32,000 bases of DNA from Gemmata obscuriglobus. Its GTDB lineage: Bacteria > Planctomycetota > Planctomycetia > Gemmatales > Gemmataceae. Made by a program: the position numbers and the translations under genes. Numbering within the stretch: the stretch's first letter is position 1; the number at the start of each line of letters is the position of its first letter. The DNA lies in the NCBI RefSeq assembly GCF_008065095.1, contig NZ_CP042911.1:660001-692000 (forward strand), written 5' to 3'. Below, piece by piece: positions 3,104 through 29,455 of the stretch. The notes below the pieces were generated by a model that saw only the letters and a list, made by a program, of their open reading frames with translations, was not told the DNA's origin and ran no database searches.

Positions 3104-4291
3104 TTACTTGCGGCTCTTCGGGTGGTGGAACGCGATCCACCCGCCGTTCTGCTTGCTGCTCTCCACGCACTTCGTGATGAACAGCATACCCTCCACGCCG
3201 TCGTAGACGTTCGGGTAAACCGTGTTCACGGTCTCGAACGACTCCCCCGCGGCGCGCTTCACCATCGCGTCGTAGGCGGTGCCGTAGACGTTCGCGAACG
3301 CCTCGAAGAACGCCTCGGGGTGGCCGCTCGGCAGGCGCACGCTCGCGCCGTGCGCGGCGCCAAGGTACGGGCCGCCGTTGCGGGTGTACAGCTTGTGCGG
3401 CTCGCCGTTCTTGCGCACGAGCAGCTTGTTCGGCTCCTCCTGGTGCCACTCGATCGCGCCCTTCGTGCCGTCCACCTCGATGAAGAGGTCGTTCTCGCGG
3501 CCGTGCGAGATCTGGCTGGCGGTGACGGTCGCCAGCGCGCCGTTCTCGAACCGGACCAGCGCGACGCCGTAGTCGTCGAGGGCGCGGCCGTCGGCGAAGA
3601 TCTTCAGGCTGCACGAGATCTCGGTCGGCAGCAGCCCGGTGATGAACCGGCCGAGGTTGTAGGCGTGGGTGCCGATGTCGCCGAAGCACCCGGCGATCCC
3701 GCTCTTGCTGGGGTCGGTGCGCCAGGCCGCCTGCTTCTGCCCGCCCGTCTCCAGTCGGTCGCGGAGCCAGCCCTGGATGTAGTTCGAGCGGATCGCGTTG
3801 ATCTCGCCGAGTTCGCCGTTGAGTACCATCTCGCGGGCCTGCCGCACCAGCGGGTAGCCGGTGTAGTTGTGCGTCACCGCGAACACCACGCCGGACTTCT
3901 CAACCACCTTCAGCAGCTCTTCCGCTTGGGCCAGGTCGAACGTGAGGGGCTTGTCGCAGATGACGTTGAACCCGGCTTCGGTGAAGGTCTTGGCGATCTC
4001 GAAGTGGGTGTGGTTCGGCGTCGCGACGGAAACGAAATCGACCTTGTCGGCCCGCTTGGCTTCGGCCTCGGCCATCTCCTTGTAAGAGGTGTAAGCGCGT
4101 TCGGCGGGGATGTCGTAATCGCTCGCGGACGCCTTCGCGCGGGCCGCGTCGCTGGACAGCGCGCCGGCGACGAGCGCCGCGCGGTTGTCGAGCACGGCCG
4201 CGGTGGCGTGGACGCGGCCGATGAAGGAGCCCTGCCCGCCGCCGATGAGGCCCATGCGGAGCTTGCGGTTGAGTGATCCGTTGGTCGGCAC
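3104..4291 (-). CDS. Gfo/Idh/MocA-family NAD(P)-dependent oxidoreductase
   Basis: C-terminal part of the 777-aa ORF: [20 protein letters not shown] (Rossmann GxGxxG), [29 protein letters not shown] and VTHNYTGYP. The chosen start is GTG 4291..4289, which has GGAG 8 nt upstream. An alternative ATG lies at 4255. Confidence 0.85.
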
Positions 4292-11948: not shown

Positions 11949-12000
11949 GATCCCGGATTTGTCGCCGCGCCTCGGAAGGCGCGGCGACAAATCCGGGATC
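11949..12000. other. Perfect 23-bp stem / 6-nt loop hairpin in the gene-free region upstream of the amidohydrolase
   Basis: gatcccggatttgtcgccgcgcc-tcggaa-ggcgcggcgacaaatccgggatc. It lies 84 nt upstream of the minus-strand start at 11865. Confidence 0.5.
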
Positions 12001-12778: not shown

Positions 12779-13570
12779 ATGCCAATCGACTTCTGGACCT
12801 ACGTGTTCCTGTGCGGTTCGGCGTTCCTGGCCGGAATCATGAACGCCGTGGCCGGCGGCGGGACGCTGCTCACGTTCCCCGCGCTGACAGGCGTTCTCAG
12901 CGCGGCGATGGCGAACGGCACCAGCACCGTGGCACTCCTGCCCGGCTCGTGCGCCGGAGCGCTGGGCTACCGCAAAGAGCTGTGGGAGTGCCGGCGGTTC
13001 GTGCTGCGGATGTGCGCGCCGAGCCTCGCGGGCGGGTTCCTCGGCGCGTGGCTCGTCGGCGAGAACCAGGACGCCTTCGCCACCCTCGTACCGTGGCTGA
13101 TCCTGACGGCCGCGCTGTTGTTCGTGGCGCAGGCCCCGCTCTCGAAGTGGGTGAAGAGCCGGGCCGCACGGGACGGGGCGCAGCCCGAGCACCACGAGCC
13201 GGGCCGGATCACGCAGGCGCTGGTGATCGGGTTCCAGTTCCTGGTTGCAACTTACGGGGGGTACTTCGGCGCCGGGATCGGCATCCTGATGCTCAGCGCC
13301 TTGGGGTTCATGGGGGTGGGCGACATCCACCGCATGAACGCGGTGAAGACGTGCCTCGCGGCGCTCATCAACGCGGCGAGCGTGGTGGTCTTCGTCCGCG
13401 ACGGGCTGGTGGACTGGAACTTCGTGCTGGTCATGGCGGCGGCGGCCACGGCCGGGGGCTACATGGGCGCCCGGGTAGCGCGGCGGCTGCCGGCGAGCTA
13501 CGTGCGGTACGCGGTCATCGCGATCGGGTTCGGGCTGTCGGCGTTCTACTTCGTCAAGAAGTACGTGTAG
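12779..13570 (+). CDS. TauE/SafE (TSUP, DUF81) family anion exporter/permease
   Basis: 263 aa: MPIDFWTYVFLCGSAFLAGIMNAVAGGGTLLTFPAL, then a second half YGGYFGAGIGILMLSALG. It is polytopic and Gly-rich, consistent with the TSUP two-repeat architecture. Confidence 0.8.
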   Translation: MPIDFWTYVFLCGSAFLAGIMNAVAGGGTLLTFPALTGVLSAAMANGTSTVALLPGSCAGALGYRKELWECRRFVLRMCAPSLAGGFLGAWLVGENQDAFATLVPWLILTAALLFVAQAPLSKWVKSRAARDGAQPEHHEPGRITQALVIGFQFLVATYGGYFGAGIGILMLSALGFMGVGDIHRMNAVKTCLAALINAASVVVFVRDGLVDWNFVLVMAAAATAGGYMGARVARRLPASYVRYAVIAIGFGLSAFYFVKKYV

Positions 13571-16475
13571 CCCCGATCCGCCACCCGGTCGGCCAGAACC
13601 CGACGGCCCGAAGGCCGACGAGCAGCCGCTCGACGAGCCACGTCCCGGCGAGCATCCCGGCGAGCATCCCGGCCGTCATGCCCGCGAAGCTGAGCGCCAC
13701 GCCCGCGACCATGTTCGCCAGCGTGGTCTGGGCCGCGAGCCACCCGCCGCCGATCATCCCCAGCGCCATCCCGACGTTACCGCCGGTGTACATCGCGACC
13801 GCGTGCTCGCCCCCCGGCGCCGGCCCCTTCCCGAACCATTTCATCGCGACGTTGGCGAGCGTCAGCATCCCGACCCACATCCACGGCCTCATGACGCCCT
13901 CGCGCATGGCCTCGACGCAGCCGCAGCAGGCGTGATCGGGCAGCGCGGCGCACCCGTTGTCGGCCCACCACCCGAGCACCATCCCGAGGTTGCCGAAGGT
14001 GACCATTCCGAAACACATGTCGAGCCAGTGCGGGACGGTGCACCGGTGCCAAGCCAGTGCGAGCCCCGCGCCCACCGTCGCGAACCCGACAAGGGTGAGC
14101 GCCCCCGCGACCGGGGTGCGAAGCGCGGCGAGGAGGAGCAGGAACGCGGCGCCCTGGAGCGCGAACGCGAGCGCGTGGGCCAGACCTACCCCCCCGGCCC
14201 CCCTCCCTGAAGGGAAGGGGGAGAAAGACCCACCCCCCAGCCCCCTCCCTGAAGGGAGAGGGGAGGAAAACAAAGGACGCGCGGAAACGTTGTCGCTCGG
14301 CAAAGATTCTTTCTCCCCCTTCCCTTCAGGGAGGGGGCTGGGGGGTGGGTCTTTCTCCCCCTTCCCTTCAGGGAGGGGGGCCGGGGGGGTAGGTTCTTCG
14401 TGCCCGCACCCGACGCGCGTGGACGAGAAGATCAGCGTCAGGCTCGACACCACCATCAGCACGGCCGCGACCACCGGGTGCAGCGCCCCGCACGCGGCGA
14501 GCGTCATGCCCACGAGGTTGTACGCCACCGCGCGGGCCAGGTTCGCGCGCACGGCCCGCACCGCGCTGCGGCTCAGTTCCACCGCCCACGGCAGCGCCGA
14601 CAGGTCGCCCCCGTACAGCGTGACCGGGGCCGCGCTGACCGCGAGGTCGGTGCCGCTCGCGAGGGCCACCCCGACGTGGGCGGACGCGAGCGCAGATGCG
14701 TCGTTGATCCCGTCGCCGACGAACAGCGGCTTCGCGCCTTCGGCCCGTGCGCGCGCGACCGCGGCCCGCTTCTCGTCCGGCAGCATTCCCCCTCGCGCGT
14801 CCGGCAGCCCGAGCGCCTCGGCCCGGCCCGGAACGTCGCCGGTGAGCACTTGAACCGGCACCCCAAGCTTCGCGAAGTGTGCCAGCGCCCGAGGGGTCGA
14901 ATCGCGGAGCCGTTCCGTCAGAACCGCCACGCCGGCCCACGCCCCGTCGACGGAAATGTGAACCGTCTTGCTCCCGTCTGGTTCCGGCGCGCCCGCACCC
15001 GCCGCGGCCCATTCCGCGACGCCGGCCTTCACCTCGTGCCGCGTCCCGTCGGTTTCGACCAGTTGCGCGACCACACCGCACCCCGGGACCGCGTGCAGCG
15101 ATTCTACCCGCGGCTCGGCGCCCGGTGCGAACGGCCGGGGGAGTTCGGCGAACGGCTTCGCCACCGGGTGCGAACTCTGAGCCTGCACCAGCGACAGCCA
15201 CCCGAGCAGTTTCGCGCGCTCCGCCCCGACCGCGACCGTCCGGACATCGACCAGAGCGAACGCGTCGTCGGTCAGGGTGCCGGTCTTGTCGAACATCACG
15301 CGATCGACGGCCGCGAGGCGCTCGAGCGCGTCCCCGCTGTTCACGATCACCCCGCGCTCCGCGAGCCGGTTCAGCGCGGACCAGACCACCACCGGCGTCG
15401 CCAGCCCGATCACGCACGGGCACGCGACCAGCAGCACCGACATGGCGTTGAACAGCCCGACCTCCCACCCGGCCCCGGCGCCCAGGGACCAGTACGCGAA
15501 CGTCCCGAGCGCGGTGAACACGACCAGGGGGAAGAGCCACCGCCCGAGCCGGTCGGCGCGGCTCTGGAGCGACAGCGGCTTGTCGCGCGCCTCTTCGACC
15601 ACTTTCAGGAGCCGGTCGATCTCGCGCTCGCGGCCGCTGGCCGTCGCGGTCACACGAAAGGCGGCGTCGAAGCTGGCCGAGCCGGCGAGGACGCGGTCGC
15701 CGGGCCGGCGCACCACCGCGAACGGCTCGCCGCTCACGGCGGACTCGGACACGAAGCCGGTGCCGTCGCGAACGAGCCCGTCCACGGGGACCAGTTCGCC
15801 GGGGTGAACCTCCACCACGTCGCCGGGCCGCACGTCCGCGACCGCCACCGTCCGCGCGGCCCCGTCCGCGCCCAGCAGGCGGCACAGGCTGAGCCGGTCG
15901 CCCCAGGCCCGCGAGCCGGCCAGCGCGGCGGCGCGGGACCGCGCCCCGATCACCTTCCCGAGCGTGTAAACGACCAGCAGAACCGACACGACCTCGAAGT
16001 AGATTTTGCCGCGCCCGGTGAGGTGCGCTTGAAGGGACGCGGCCAGCGCCCCGGTGGCCGTGAGGAGAAAGAGGGCCTCGATGGTGAGCCGACCGCGGCG
16101 CAGCTCGCGCGCGGCGGCGCGGACCAGCGGCCCGCCCAGGAGCGCCGCGACCAGGGCCGTGCCCGCGAGAATGCCCCACTGGGCGAGGTCGCGGGCCGCC
16201 GGGGGCACGTCGTCGTGGACGTTCAGCGCGAGGCCGAAGATCATCGACTGGCCGACGACCAGCACCCCGACCCCGAGGCGCCACCCGAGTTGCGCGAACT
16301 CCGGTTCAGCGCCGGCCCCGCACGCGCCCGCCCCGCACGCGCGCTCGGCGACCGCGAGGCAGCCGAAACAGCAGTAGAGTGGCGCGGGGCGGTCGCCGTC
16401 GGCGCGGCCGGCGTACCCGGCCCCGGTGATCGGCCCGTGACAGTTCGCGCAGGTGGTCATGTTCGCTTTTTGCAT
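13554..16475 (-). CDS. ccoI: CcoI/FixI-type Cu-transporting P1B-ATPase, fused in frame through a repeat-encoded linker to a C-terminal 6-TM Cys/Met-rich domain
   Basis: ORF 13554..16577; the start was chosen at internal ATG 16475 (alternative 16460). The N-terminal Cys-rich region is TTCANCHGP...LYCCFGCLAV. ATPase motifs present are SAVSGEP, the TM CPC motif (LLVACPCVIGLATP), DKTGTLT and GDGINDA. After ...LTLIFSSTRV comes repeat-encoded PLPEGKGEK.../SPFPSGRGAGG, and then about 200 aa of membrane domain. Confidence 0.8.
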   Translation of the reverse strand: MQKANMTTCANCHGPITGAGYAGRADGDRPAPLYCCFGCLAVAERACGAGACGAGAEPEFAQLGWRLGVGVLVVGQSMIFGLALNVHDDVPPAARDLAQWGILAGTALVAALLGGPLVRAAARELRRGRLTIEALFLLTATGALAASLQAHLTGRGKIYFEVVSVLLVVYTLGKVIGARSRAAALAGSRAWGDRLSLCRLLGADGAARTVAVADVRPGDVVEVHPGELVPVDGLVRDGTGFVSESAVSGEPFAVVRRPGDRVLAGSASFDAAFRVTATASGREREIDRLLKVVEEARDKPLSLQSRADRLGRWLFPLVVFTALGTFAYWSLGAGAGWEVGLFNAMSVLLVACPCVIGLATPVVVWSALNRLAERGVIVNSGDALERLAAVDRVMFDKTGTLTDDAFALVDVRTVAVGAERAKLLGWLSLVQAQSSHPVAKPFAELPRPFAPGAEPRVESLHAVPGCGVVAQLVETDGTRHEVKAGVAEWAAAGAGAPEPDGSKTVHISVDGAWAGVAVLTERLRDSTPRALAHFAKLGVPVQVLTGDVPGRAEALGLPDARGGMLPDEKRAAVARARAEGAKPLFVGDGINDASALASAHVGVALASGTDLAVSAAPVTLYGGDLSALPWAVELSRSAVRAVRANLARAVAYNLVGMTLAACGALHPVVAAVLMVVSSLTLIFSSTRVGCGHEEPTPPAPLPEGKGEKDPPPSPLPEGKGEKESLPSDNVSARPLFSSPLPSGRGLGGGSFSPFPSGRGAGGVGLAHALAFALQGAAFLLLLAALRTPVAGALTLVGFATVGAGLALAWHRCTVPHWLDMCFGMVTFGNLGMVLGWWADNGCAALPDHACCGCVEAMREGVMRPWMWVGMLTLANVAMKWFGKGPAPGGEHAVAMYTGGNVGMALGMIGGGWLAAQTTLANMVAGVALSFAGMTAGMLAGMLAGTWLVERLLVGLRAVGFWPTGWRIGATRTS
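14184..14394. repeat. ~210-nt composite palindromic (MITE/REP-like) element lying inside the ccoI reading frame
   Basis: The left arm is acctacccccccggcccccctccctgaagggaagggggagaaagacccaccccccagccccctccctgaaggga. Its reverse complement recurs at about 14310-14394, with roughly 74 nt exact. Each arm holds two tandem copies of a ccctccctgaagggaaggggg(a)gaaag unit. The symmetry centre is aacgtt near 14288/14289. Both strands translate to the same peptides (PLPEGKGEK / SPFPSGRG). Confidence 0.85.
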
Positions 16476-16480
16476 CGGCC

Positions 16481-16546
16481 GCACAGGGCCGGCGGGGGCG
16501 CACCGGGCGGGAGCCCTGTGCGCCCATTCACGCCGCTCTCGCCTGG
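16481..16546. repeat. Intergenic repeat, family A copy 1, between the cytochrome c gene and ccoI
   Basis: The 34-nt string ggagccctgtgcgcccattcacgccgctctcgcc (16510-16543) is identical to 19961-19994. It is preceded by a 9-bp inverted match, gcacagggc...gccctgtgc. Confidence 0.8.
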
Positions 16547-16589
16547 TGCGCGCCCGCCGGCTGTACACCCGGACCAACCGACAGCCGGG

Positions 16590-17465
16590 TCACTTCTTCG
16601 GCGCCGGCGGGTCGGCGTAGTCCTTCGGGAACTTCTCTTGCAGCTCGGCTGCGGTCACCGAGTCGCGCTTGCCGTCCTTCGCCCGGGCGGCGCGCACGGT
16701 GGCGGCGGTGATCGCCGGCTTCTTGTCGTCCGGATCGGCTTTGTTCGACCAACTGTTGCGCACGTAGGTCAGCACGCCCGCGATCTCGTAGTCCTTGAGC
16801 TGGTCCGCGTGCGGCGGCATGGCGGCGGCGCCCCACGCGGTGCGCGGCACCTGCGGTGACTTCACCTCGATGTTCCCCTTCAGCCCGTACAGCACGATGC
16901 GCGACAGCCGCGCCGGCGACGACTGGTCGCCCGTGACCCAGTTCGACCCGTCGAGCGGCGGGATGTTCTCCGCGGGCTTGCCCAGCCCTTCCGGCAGGTG
17001 GCACGCGGCGCAGATGGCGTTGTACTTGCGCCCGCCGATCGCCTTCAGTTCCTCGACCGTTTGCGGGTCCGGGTCGGTGACCGGCCCGGCCACCGGGGTG
17101 GCGACCGGGTTCGGCTCGTCGTACACGTCGGCGCGGAAGTCGGCGGAGTTGGAGCCGACGTAGAACCCGCCCCACATGAGCAGCGCGCCGCACACCACCG
17201 CCACCCAGAACGGCACCGGCTCGAACCCGTCGCGGGGCTCGGCCTGCTCGCGCATCAGCACGTCGTGCATCGACTGCACCGAGTCCGCGCCGCCGGCCCC
17301 GGGCTCGTCCACCGCGGTGTCGTCCACGCCGTCGGCGGTGAGCATCACCGGGTCGTTCATCTGCGCCATGTGGGCGCGGTGCAGGTCCTGGACCGAGTCG
17401 CCGCCGGTGGGGACCACGGGGGCGTCGGTGCGGATCGGGGCGTTGGTCGGGTTGGTGTCGCTCAT
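16590..17465 (-). CDS. Membrane-anchored monoheme c-type cytochrome in the CcoP position of the cbb3 operon
   Basis: Internal ATG 17465 overlaps the ccoO stop (ATGA), with GGAGG upstream. 291 aa: an acidic N-terminal region, one TM segment (FWVAVVCGALLMWGGFYVG), a single CAACH heme motif and a distal AAMPP Met ligand candidate. Confidence 0.75.
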   Translation of the reverse strand: MSDTNPTNAPIRTDAPVVPTGGDSVQDLHRAHMAQMNDPVMLTADGVDDTAVDEPGAGGADSVQSMHDVLMREQAEPRDGFEPVPFWVAVVCGALLMWGGFYVGSNSADFRADVYDEPNPVATPVAGPVTDPDPQTVEELKAIGGRKYNAICAACHLPEGLGKPAENIPPLDGSNWVTGDQSSPARLSRIVLYGLKGNIEVKSPQVPRTAWGAAAMPPHADQLKDYEIAGVLTYVRNSWSNKADPDDKKPAITAATVRAARAKDGKRDSVTAAELQEKFPKDYADPPAPKK

Positions 17466-18280
17466 TCCTTCGCCTCCGGCAGCGGAACTTCGGCCTTCCG
17501 CAGTGCGAGCAAATACGCGACCAGCGCGTCGCCGTCGGCGTTCGGGACCACCTGGTAGTCCTCTTCCGGGGTCGTGAGCCAGAACTCCAGGAGCCGCTTC
17601 TTCCCGTCCGCGGTGGAGATGTCGATGGACTCCGCTCGGCCGGCCGTGTACTGCGCCACCAGCTCCGGCCCGCGCTTCGCCACGATCCCGTCCCACTCGC
17701 CGTCGCTGGGCCGCCACCGGTACCCGGGGTCGACGGTCCACTCGCGGCCCAGCGCCAGGGCTCGGTCGCTGCGCGCCCCGGTGACCTTCTCGCGGGTGTA
17801 GAAGAACGGGAACGACGGCATGACGCTCCACACGTTCGCCGACCGCGGGTTCAGCAGGTGCGTGTGGTGCCACGCGTCGGACGGGTTCCGCACCCCGATG
17901 TTCGCGAGGTCCGGGCCGGTGCGCATGGTCCCGAGCATGGTCGGGTTGTCGTAGATGTAGTCGCGCGAGACGGTGCGCCGCAGCCCGTAGCTGCGCTTGA
18001 TGTCGGCCCCGGTCCGCTCGACGCCGTCGGCGTCGGTCCAGCCGCCGAACCGCGCGCTGCGCACCTGCTGCGTGTGGCAGTACATGCACCCGTTGTGCTG
18101 GTACACCTTCATGCCGGCCAGCTCGGCGCCCGACAGGGGCCGCGGGTACGGGTCCTCGCCCTCGCCCTTCTGGTACGGCTTCTCGTTCCCCAACTGCCAG
18201 TACGGGAACACGATCAGGCCGAGCCAGCTCGACGAGAACGTGAGCAGCGCGCCCAGGAAGATCACCATCCCGCGGTCCAT
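17462..18280 (-). CDS. ccoO: cbb3-type cytochrome c oxidase subunit II (CcoO/FixO), with an insertion before the C-terminus
   Basis: Internal ATG 18280. MDRGMVIFLGALLTFSSSWLGLIVFPYW forms the TM anchor. Family motifs present are GCMYCHTQQVR (heme c), DYIYDNPTMLGTMRTGPDLANIG, WHHTHLLNPR and SVMPSFPFF. The upstream 49 codons of ORF 17462..18427 (MATKTHKGHK...FCALCAFLWP) are translation of the palindromic repeat. Confidence 0.85.
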   Translation of the reverse strand: MDRGMVIFLGALLTFSSSWLGLIVFPYWQLGNEKPYQKGEGEDPYPRPLSGAELAGMKVYQHNGCMYCHTQQVRSARFGGWTDADGVERTGADIKRSYGLRRTVSRDYIYDNPTMLGTMRTGPDLANIGVRNPSDAWHHTHLLNPRSANVWSVMPSFPFFYTREKVTGARSDRALALGREWTVDPGYRWRPSDGEWDGIVAKRGPELVAQYTAGRAESIDISTADGKKRLLEFWLTTPEEDYQVVPNADGDALVAYLLALRKAEVPLPEAKE

Positions 18281-18308
18281 CGTTCCCTCATTCAACGAGA
18301 ACAGGAGC

Positions 18309-18425
18309 GGCCACAAAAATGCACAAAGGGCACAAAAGAAAACCAAATCAAAGAGTTTGAACTGGTCCCAACCTCGCTTCTTCTGCCCCGGTTCTCTTTT
18401 GTGCCCTTTGTGCGTTTTTGTGGCC
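18309..18425. repeat. Intercistronic palindromic element between ccoN and ccoO, with 36-nt arms and a 45-nt loop
   Basis: The left arm ggccacaaaaatgcacaaagggcacaaaagaaaacc (18309-18344) matches the reverse complement of 18390-18425 (ggccacaaaaacgcacaaagggcacaaaagagaacc) at 34 of 36 positions. It is A-rich, unlike the surrounding DNA. Confidence 0.85.
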
Positions 18426-18433
18426 ACTCTGTC

Positions 18434-19888: not shown

Positions 19889-19939
19889 GTCGCATCGGTC
19901 TCCCAAAAATCGCGTTCTCGCCCGGATCGCCGGCGCTGG

Positions 19940-20195
19940 GCTACCGCCCTGTGCAGGGCTGGAGCCCTGTGCGCCCATTCACGCCGCTCTCGCCCTGTGC
20001 GCCCACTCGCGGCGCCTCTGGGCACAGGGCTCCCGCCCTGTGCTACGCCCGCCGGCCCCTCCGGGGCGGAAAAGAAGTTAAAAGGCAAAAGCGCTGCATC
20101 CTCTTTGCCTTTTGACTTTGCTCTTGTGCCTTGGTCTGGCACCCCGGAGGGGTCGCCGGGGGTAGCACAGGGCGGGAGCCCTGTGCGCCCCAGCG
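19940..20195. repeat. Composite repeat block between ccoS-like and ccoN: family A copy 2 plus a ~170-nt imperfect palindrome with an AT-rich hairpin core
   Basis: 19961-19994 is identical to 16510-16543. The inverted pair gggcacagggctcccgccctgtgctac (20020-20046) and gtagcacagggcgggagccctgtgcgccc (20162-20190) flanks a core. That core contains the 9-bp hairpin aaaggcaaa...tttgccttt and inverted cccctccgggg / ccccggagggg motifs. Confidence 0.8.
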
Positions 20196-20205
20196 CCCCC
20201 GTCAC

Positions 20206-29388: not shown

Positions 29389-29455
29389 GAGCGGCGCGGC
29401 GTAGAGCCCGCCGGTTTGGGTCCGACGCACCGGCGGGCTCTACGCCGCGCCGCTC
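29389..29455. repeat. Perfect 27-bp stem / 13-nt loop hairpin filling the actA-actB intercistronic gap
   Basis: gagcggcgcggcgtagagcccgccggt-ttgggtccgacgc-accggcgggctctacgccgcgccgctc. It occupies 67 of the 82 nt between the actA stop (29463) and the actB start (29380). Confidence 0.85.

Follow-up and report, generated by a model that had tools for sequence, protein, structure and literature searches.

A REP/REPIN-like palindromic repeat probably read in frame as the interdomain linker of a P-type ATPase fusion in Gemmata obscuriglobus

In-frame palindromic repeats are already known in kind from the Rickettsia palindromic elements (RPEs) and from intragenic copies of repetitive extragenic palindromic (REP) sequences. 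According to the parts of two reports that treat them (PMC10969869, PMC3733652), RPE-1 and related RPEs (Ogata et al. 2000) are dispersed palindromes of ∼100–150 bp, a large share of which lie in frame in unrelated genes, where they add a peptide on the surface or in a loop. GTAG-tagged REPs and REP dimers are reported, in the sections of Di Nocera et al. (2013, PMC3733652) that describe them, from Planctomycetes, Chloroflexi and Verrucomicrobia; some copies are intragenic and in frame, with dimers encoding 20–30 amino acids (aa) and clusters 43–82 aa, and the TAG of the tag can give rise to stop codons. The other close comparator is the REPIN (Bertels & Rainey 2011, PMC3116915). Bacterial MITEs (transposable elements of the miniature inverted-repeat class), of ∼70–300 bp with terminal inverted repeats and no gene of their own, also form in-frame fusions with host open reading frames (ORFs) (PMC10969869). 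Here we describe a palindrome in a 32,000-nucleotide stretch of Gemmata obscuriglobus (contig NZ_CP042911.1, positions 660,001 to 692,000), referred to below as the window, in whose coordinates positions are given. The palindrome (14184–14394) lies within an ORF encoding a heavy-metal P-type ATPase and a C-terminal membrane domain. In our reading, to which we assign a probability of about 0.8, it is a nested pair of copies of a dispersed REP/REPIN-like family of the Gemmataceae, read in frame as the tether between the two parts of the protein. Its components are as follows.

14184..14394, no strand: palindromic element of four units, recognised by its inverted repeat, 21-mer matches and RNA fold.
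14184..14228, + strand: outer unit facing the C-terminal domain, ACCTACCCCCCCGGCCCCCCTCCCTGAAGGGAAGGGGGAGAAAGA, with a CTAC tag and a hairpin whose pyrimidine and purine arms enclose a TGAA loop; confirmed to 14228 by independent contigs.
14229..14268, + strand: inner unit with a CCCAC variant of the tag (GTGG variant), as in both inner units, and three mismatches to its partner.
14269..14309, no strand: 41-nt spacer with the centre aacgtt; inverted in G. algarum JC717.
14310..14349, − strand: inner unit on the ATPase side; exactly the 42-nt unit lost in G. algarum JC673.
14350..14394, − strand: outer unit on the ATPase side.

The two inverted-repeat arms (14184–14268 and 14310–14394) are 85 nt long and 96% complementary, with exact complementarity over their outer 74 nt. 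Each contains two direct units at a spacing of 42 nt, making four units in all, a nested inverted doublet of 211 bases whose symmetry centre, aacgtt, falls at 14286–14291. Within a unit of 42–45 nt, the CTAC (= GTAG) tag and a C-run are accompanied by a short hairpin; this hairpin, CCCCCTCCC-TGAA-GGGA(A)GGGGG, is a small stem-loop of the REP type and is present four times. When the window was scanned for the 21-mer CCCTCCCTGAAGGGAAGGGGG with up to two mismatches, four matches were obtained, all inside the element, where shuffled sequences would lead one to expect none; a separate detector for pyrimidine-arm/purine-arm hairpins also found exactly four in the window, namely the four unit hairpins. 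The sense-strand RNA of the element was predicted to fold at −225 kcal/mol, compared with −123 ± 5 kcal/mol for shuffled versions (z = −20). These values agree with the first-pass annotation of the window, made from the sequence alone, which had described a palindrome of ∼210 nt with arms of ∼85 nt exact over ∼74 nt, a tandem duplication within each arm, an aacgtt centre and strong folding in the mRNA, the last of these being upheld as a prediction. A search of the element against Rfam returned generic miRNA-like hairpin matches alone, far below gathering scores. A promoter and terminator scan of 13400–14800 found nothing, nor did the element show a terminator-like tail.

The host protein consists of two parts joined by the segment that contains the element.

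13554..16475, − strand: fused ORF, annotated as 973 aa from M35, an exact match to a public protein; the alternative starts are M40 at 16460 (968 aa) and, for the mechanically called ORF, a TTG at 16577 (1007 aa).
14409..16460, − strand: P1B-type heavy-metal ATPase core (E1-E2_ATPase, HAD hydrolase, CPC motif), assigned by TIGR01525 and ccoNOP synteny.
14178..14408, − strand: linker-coding segment of 231 nt/77 aa (CGHEE...GVGLA), linking the ATPase end (..TRVG) to the HALAFALQG helix.
13554..14177, − strand: C-terminal six-helix membrane domain, delimited with 64 homologues and a structure model.

Pfam recognised E1-E2_ATPase and HAD hydrolase domains in the fused protein. The NCBIfam model for heavy-metal P-type ATPases, TIGR01525, scored 397.7 bits (cut-off 346.25) over residues 167–721, and residue 721 corresponds to profile position 559 of 560, so that the ATPase is complete ahead of the element. 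The CPC transmembrane metal-site motif was seen in ..LLVACPCVIGLATP.., and the gene lies directly downstream of ccoN/O/P both in the window and in the orthologous loci (COX1/FixO/Cytochrome_CBB3). The identification of the ATPase as CcoI/FixI-like rests on this synteny and on the CPC motif; the copper-subgroup model TIGR01511 scored 343.4, below its cut-off of 397. The first-pass annotation had placed the repeat inside ccoI, in an interdomain linker. The linker was correctly recognised, although it lies outside the ATPase core, and the gene name is favoured by gene order and motif but not by the copper-specific model. The 209 C-terminal residues matched no Pfam or NCBIfam family, and a Foldseek search of this domain against the Protein Data Bank found no solved relative (best E-value 0.46). 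Its homologues (n = 64) all came from Gemmataceae-like sources and share conserved Met, Cys, His, Gly and Trp columns, with the motifs HWLDMCFGM, CCxCVEAMR, GGNxGM and AGMTxGMLAGM. An AlphaFold model built from 40 sequences predicted six long helices (pLDDT 91.7, pTM 0.87). The domain is thus an orphan, lineage-restricted family and a candidate metal-handling module.

The 1007-aa version of the ORF (13554..16577, − strand) is open across the element, which covers approximately residues 728–798, and specifies the linker peptide quoted in the first-pass annotation (the PLPEGKGEK/SPFPSGRG segment). An ORF on the + strand (13957..14853) encodes mirrored peptides, and the stop of another − strand ORF (14368..16284) falls inside the element; all three statements had been made before and proved correct. 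The linker-coding segment is 231 nt long, a multiple of three, and while its frame 0, that of the ATPase, is open, frames 1 and 2 contain one and two stops, respectively. Tryptic peptides predicted from it are DPPPSPLPEGK, ESLPSDNVSARPLFSSPLPSGR and GLGGGSFSPFPSGR. No ATG, GTG or TTG start codon lies in the stretch that leads from the element to the first helix of the C-terminal domain, and the next Met of the G. obscuriglobus protein lies inside helix 3.

The open frame was also found in independent sequence. The 973-aa read-through protein is present in identical form under AWM40849.1, QEG25862.1 and VTR99864.1, as well as RefSeq WP_109571336.1, on three contigs; it is named a cation-translocating P-type ATPase of G. 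obscuriglobus in three genome records, none of which shows a stop or frameshift. The neighbouring TauE protein, identical throughout, led to further contigs, namely those of the Sanger draft ABGO01 and of more than 20 short-read assemblies. These match the window up to position 14228, including the C7-GG-C6 runs on the side of the C-terminal domain, and all of them end inside the first unit (14183–14228), the usual effect of a dispersed repeat on assembly. The product of the old draft (777 aa) is chimeric immediately after ..GCGHEEPTPP; that assembly therefore went wrong at the repeat.

To compare linkers among relatives, two anchors, the end of the ATPase and the first helix of the C-terminal domain, were located in every fetched locus, and the distance between them was measured. 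In the metagenome-assembled genomes (MAGs) and strains with a repeat at this place, the following was found.

G. obscuriglobus (window): linker of 231 nt, open, four units.
G. algarum JC717: linker of 189 nt, open, three units with an inverted core.
G. algarum JC673: linker of 189 nt, open, three units.
Fimbriiglobus MAG: linker of 153 nt, open, one doublet of the family found in the window element.
Frigoriglobus MAG: linker of 159 nt, open, a composite of two families.
F. tundricola: linker of 246 nt, open, a different palindromic family, GGGGGGCGTAAGCCCCCCG.

The linkers of these six assemblies, with their differing repeat content, were all open and all multiples of three (6/6). Only three assemblies had an out-of-frame linker: the draft of G. 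massiliana, a 454 Titanium assembly at 22x, and two long-read MAGs in which the adjacent genes are fragmented too. Runs of C and G are where 454 and long-read platforms make indel errors, and the elements consist of such runs. The first-pass annotation had proposed a search for alleles empty of the repeat, and counterparts were indeed found among distant orthologues: in 13 metagenomic homologues, the ATPase end (..LMVVSSLTLIFSSTRVG..HC..; SSLTLIFSSTRVG) is joined to the HALAFALQG domain by a non-repeat linker of 20–40 aa within a single ORF. The idea considered first, that of an intergenic repeat between two genes with an accidental ORF running through it, was dropped given these homologues and the conservation of the frame. 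We conclude from these sequence comparisons that the fusion of the ATPase and the C-terminal domain is genuine and old, the repeat filling a variable linker, since homologues with non-repeat linkers are encoded by one ORF, the frame is kept and no start codon precedes helix 3.

The linker repeat also varies between sister species in ways that leave the frame intact. Relative to G. obscuriglobus, G. algarum JC673 has lost exactly one 42-nt unit, while in JC717 the central segment is inverted and 42 nt have been lost on the other side; both strains encode a protein of 954 aa, with identity above 90% outside the linker. The PLPEGKGEK/SPFPSGRG segment, whose lineage specificity the first-pass annotation had proposed to check, is lineage-specific, and it varies even between G. 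obscuriglobus and G. algarum. In the linker of F. tundricola (locus L123 of our set, 3647–3892), the palindromic family is read in frame as SGGRKPP/GGLTPPA; its presence there implies that the junction accepts several repeat families. In the same complete genome record the ATPase frame shifts within the ATPase body, after ..VLTGDAIGRAE (L123, ∼3290–3390), which is either a sequencing error or the mark of a pseudogene; even so, the C-terminal domain is joined in frame.

Residence in frame is not confined to this gene. Each unit has a stop in one of three frames per strand (the TGA of CCC-TGA-AGG or the TAG of GGG-TAG-GTT). Same-family copies were found in frame at orthologous sites in genes for DUF2344 proteins (four planctomycete assemblies) and GalT-like proteins (two assemblies). 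With a heuristic that combines third-position G+C content and ORF extent, with no homology check, 23 of 67 elements lay in ORFs that stay open through them and look coding on both sides.

A second hot spot for repeats, as units or half-units, was noticed in relatives at the loop of the ATPase N-domain that precedes VxVAVDG: in L001 (∼4130–4170, the G. massiliana 454 draft), L002 (4263–4283, a long-read MAG), L052 (3913–3934) and L123 (F. tundricola). The copies in L002 and L123 are read through in frame, and the ORF is broken at the copy in the 454 draft L001. The F. tundricola copy at this loop is of the GGLTPPA family; G. obscuriglobus has no repeat there.

The distribution of the family was followed by scanning one genome per species for the exact 21-mer, which was found in at least 120 stretches. 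Among the matches listed there are many stretches per genome in Gemmata, Frigoriglobus, Fimbriiglobus, Singulisphaera and other Planctomycetota (at least 14 in G. massiliana, at least ∼22 in a Frigoriglobus MAG and at least 11 in a Gemmata MAG), and the 21-mer also occurs in Bacteroidales and Chloroflexota. The arm sequence, which the first-pass annotation had suggested counting elsewhere, is thus dispersed. When copies were aligned, conservation reached well past the 21-mer used for searching: the Planctomycetota unit reads (GAAGA)ACCTACCCCCCCGGCCC + 21-mer + AGnAAGA, and the Bacteroidales consensus reads AGCCTACCCCCnGC + 21-mer, with the CTAC tag present in the consensus AGCCTACCCCC. CTAC lies upstream of the 21-mer in 74 of the 95 Planctomycetota copies. 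Usually the family takes the form of a doublet, in which two inverted units flank a spacer that varies from 20 to 100 nt; the simplest form is a single long hairpin (loci L017, L018 and L092); copies carry inverted ends of the form (GAAGA)ACCTAC...GTAGGT(TCTTC). Outside the Planctomycetota, the exact 21-mer with an upstream CCTACCCCC tag was observed many times, among the matches listed (loci L003–L122), in MAGs of gut Bacteroidales (Sodaliphilus, Prevotella, Paludibacteraceae) and in Chloroflexota. A motif of 35 nt shared across phyla calls for explanation, either by horizontal spread or by a shared enzyme that recognises it.

These features place the element close to the GTAG-tagged REPs and the REPINs. 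Like the former, as the relevant sections of their survey present them, it is built from a short stem-loop with a GTAG-like tag that is multicopy in relatives, occurs mostly as inverted pairs with 20–100-bp spacers and forms larger hairpins; unlike them, it has a C-run, which pairs in the dimer, between its tag and the small hairpin, and those sections of the survey (PMC3733652) do not name the Gemmataceae family. With REPINs it shares two inverted REPs and a spacer that together form a long hairpin, whereas the partner suggested here (see below) is DUF559 and not a tyrosine transposase such as RAYT. It resembles MITEs in its size, inverted ends, in-frame position and want of a gene of its own, but is closer to the REP pattern in having variable spacers and solo units. 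The RPEs, so far as the sources at hand portray them, offer the same combination of a dispersed palindrome, in-frame residence and an added peptide segment in an intact ORF. The present element is no member of that group, its sequence being unrelated and its tag CTAC/GTAG where that of RPEs is given as CGTC (PMC3733652); moreover, it resides in the 9-Mb genome of a free-living planctomycete and not in a reduced intracellular one, and the copy is a nested four-unit palindrome with polymorphism in unit number and orientation. In the literature searched, no description of palindromic repeats of Gemmata was found, and within it in-frame palindromes are new for this lineage.

We propose that REP/REPIN-type repeats entered the DNA coding for the linker, probably on more than one occasion and as members of more than one family. 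The element would then be transcribed and translated as a Pro/Gly/Lys/Glu/Ser-rich tether of ∼70 residues, cytoplasmic and presumably disordered, running from the last helix of the ATPase to the first helix of the C-terminal domain. Such an arrangement may be tolerated since the linker would be free in length and sequence, and a unit is stop-free in two frames out of three on either strand. Gain or loss of a unit would keep the frame because the 42-nt period equals 14 codons, and a flip of the core between the inverted arms would keep it because the relevant frame is free of stops on both strands; out-of-frame variants would be removed by selection on the downstream C-terminal domain. The very stable hairpin may in turn have some effect on the mRNA. 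The first-pass annotation had spoken of an element 'tolerated, or exapted' in an essential gene: tolerance under selection for an open frame is consistent with what was found, whereas exaptation, and the word essential, go beyond the data.

Three other explanations were weighed against an in-frame repeat tether. One is that the ATPase and a small membrane protein are encoded by two separate genes, with an ordinary intergenic REP between them and the long ORF arising by chance read-through. This would account for the many C-terminal homologues that annotations give as stand-alone proteins (170–230 aa), for the stop inside the element in the G. massiliana draft and for the ATG that directly follows the element in the nearest MAG. 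However, several of the stand-alone calls start inside the repeat or at a contig end, the split cases are 454 or error-prone long-read assemblies, and G. obscuriglobus has no usable start before helix 3; distant relatives have both parts in one ORF with non-repeat linkers, and the six accurate assemblies, with varied linker content, always keep an open multiple of three. We therefore regard two separate genes as unlikely. It is highly improbable that a fold-back chimera, a homopolymer error or another artefact of assembly or sequencing produced the palindrome or its open frame. The termination of the short-read and Sanger contigs inside the element and the chimeric product of the old draft might suggest so, but the 973-aa product is identical in three genome records, the independent contigs agree up to 14228 and homologous elements stand at the same junction in seven other assemblies.

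The remaining alternative is that the hairpin is kept for a function at the level of RNA or DNA (a translational pause, an RNase site or an invertible switch), the peptide being a by-product. Its extreme predicted stability would fit this explanation, as would the finding that Gemmata, Frigoriglobus and Fimbriiglobus all carry palindromes, albeit of differing families, at precisely this junction, the inversion of the core between sister species, and the report that DUF559 genes, whose association with the repeats is described below, are enriched among the targets of predicted programmed inversions (PMC9881135). Against it, sequence, unit number, spacer and repeat family differ among close relatives, so that no specific structure is conserved; the inverted core gives nearly the same peptide, so that nothing obvious would be switched; distant relatives function without the hairpin; and there is no terminator-like tail. 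A retained function of this type thus seems quite improbable.

Several observations do weigh against the in-frame repeat tether itself. No repeat-free site was found within the genus, and the empty linkers come from lineages whose C-terminal domain is ∼40–60% identical and whose linkers cannot be aligned; we infer the insertion event and have not observed it. The closest MAG has an ATG just ahead of the C-terminal domain, and separate translation of this domain in some lineages is conceivable; translation of the linker, with both parts in a single polypeptide, is likewise predicted from sequence. The CTAC tag lies ∼9–13 nt from the small hairpin and does not abut it; the tag pairs within the dimer. 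G. obscuriglobus does not appear among the at least 120 matches listed, and the 32-kb window holds one copy only; the repetitive status of the element in this species is indicated by contigs that break in the unit and by a same-family dimer at a DUF559 gene. Among the ORF families near units (8-kb pieces per genome) no obvious transposase was seen, no search being aimed at RAYT. Finally, a target-site duplication was not evident at the junctions inspected, and no insertion sequence whose ends match those of the element, as a parent's would, was found. For these last reasons the MITE half of the earlier label 'MITE/REP-like' was not retained, while its REP half was strengthened by the dispersal of the family; the element appears better described as a GTAG/CTAC-tagged REP/REPIN-like doublet.

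The survey of family copies drew attention to genes for DUF559 proteins. Units were seen to flank small ORFs in three MAGs, one of Gemmata, one of another planctomycete and one of Prevotella. Pfam assigns these ORFs to DUF559 (PF04480), with E = 7e-33 and 1.5e-27, and hairpin-flanked DUF559 genes were noted at L087 (742–1287), L021 (1061–1375) and L010 (224–1801). The Prevotella MAG has a unit-DUF559-unit cassette embedded in frame in a DegT aminotransferase gene, where it splits the Pfam DegT match cleanly in two. A set of 80 DUF559 loci from metagenomes (L139–L218), of 35–73% G+C, was then scanned for pyrimidine-arm/purine-arm hairpins, with the following densities by distance from the DUF559 gene.

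Up to 150 nt: 3.78 hairpins per kb.
151–300 nt: 1.64 per kb.
301–600 nt: 0.29 per kb.
601–1500 nt: 0.14 per kb.
Inside the DUF559 gene: 0; in shuffled sequence: 0.

The density within 150 nt was therefore 27 times that at 600–1500 nt, and 52 of the 80 loci had at least one hairpin within 150 nt. The flanks share the same design of tag plus hairpin, with lineage-specific sequence. Cassettes sharing 72–90% identity lose their similarity within ∼50–140 nt of the ORF, their flanks being otherwise unrelated, and two or three copies occur on some contigs. Close DUF559 homologues often start with unit-encoded peptides; at the protein level, a long DUF559 annotation of G. obscuriglobus starts PTPPGPPSLKGRGE...SPFPLGRGAGGVG directly before the domain, which corresponds to a same-family dimer. 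G. obscuriglobus encodes the DUF559 protein WP_197905163.1. One pair of loci (L139 and L140) had been considered as a clean case of presence and absence of a dimer, and was rejected when homology was found to end 35 nt upstream of the DUF559 match, indicating a change of context. There is no DUF559 gene in the 32-kb window, where the copy is a solo, non-autonomous element.

The association between DUF559 and hairpins is solid. Its direction may be that the nuclease mobilises the hairpins or that the cassette targets them. Apart from the enrichment among predicted inversion targets cited above, DUF559 is related to EDxHD homing endonucleases (PMC9403480) and, according to the portion of that source that cites I-Bth0305I (EDxHD/Vsr-like; Taylor et al. 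2011), belongs to the same Vsr-like class of nuclease folds as a proven family of homing endonucleases. The multicopy cassettes, in varied contexts and flanked by hairpins, recall the REPtron, in which RAYT is flanked by REPs; unlike in homing endonucleases and REPtrons, activity, a recognition site and mobility are putative for the DUF559 proteins considered here. No link between DUF559 and REP-like repeats was found in the literature searched. We tentatively suggest, at rather less than even odds, that there is a superfamily of tagged pyrimidine/purine-arm hairpins that crosses phyla, in which the linker repeat would be a non-autonomous member and DUF559 (Vsr-like, PD-(D/E)XK) the autonomous partner, in a REPtron-like or homing relationship.

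Other features of the window were noted in passing. The fusion ORF and a convergent TauE-family ORF (12779–13570, + strand) overlap by 17 nt at their 3′-ends (13554–13570), an arrangement kept in G. massiliana, G. algarum and F. tundricola. A second, unrelated palindrome at 18305–18429 (40-nt arms, 93% complementary, core GGCCACAAAAAYGCACAAAGGGCACAAAAG) fills the spacer between the stop of a ccoN-like ORF (18434) and the likely ATG of ccoO (18279); the mechanically called ORF 17462..18427 reads it as a false N-terminus, MATKTHKGHK... A third palindromic family, GCACAGGGCGGGAGCCCTGTGC, with 56-nt arms that are 86% complementary, occupies 20011–20197 (and 19933–20186), just upstream of the start of a ccoN-like ORF (19978). 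Three short perfect or near-perfect inverted repeats of other sequence, with arms of 24–27 nt and loops of 4–13 nt (1949–2004, 11949–12000 and 29389–29455), may be terminator-like hairpins or further repeat families.

If the suggested partnership with DUF559 is true, this very large domain family would gain a function, and the stop-poor frames and 42-nt period of the units would look like adaptations for life inside genes. For the planctomycetes, the repeat explains why assemblies break at this junction and why annotations of the gene are split or truncated, and it serves as a warning that low-complexity segments of the PLPEGKGE/PFPSGRG type in planctomycete proteins are repeat-derived. The occurrence of in-frame palindromes is thereby extended from Rickettsia and a few Proteobacteria and Verrucomicrobia to the large genomes of free-living planctomycetes. 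The locus also amounts to a natural experiment, in which a single linker is found in four-unit, three-unit and inverted versions in sister species, and with other repeat families in sister genera, with the frame kept.

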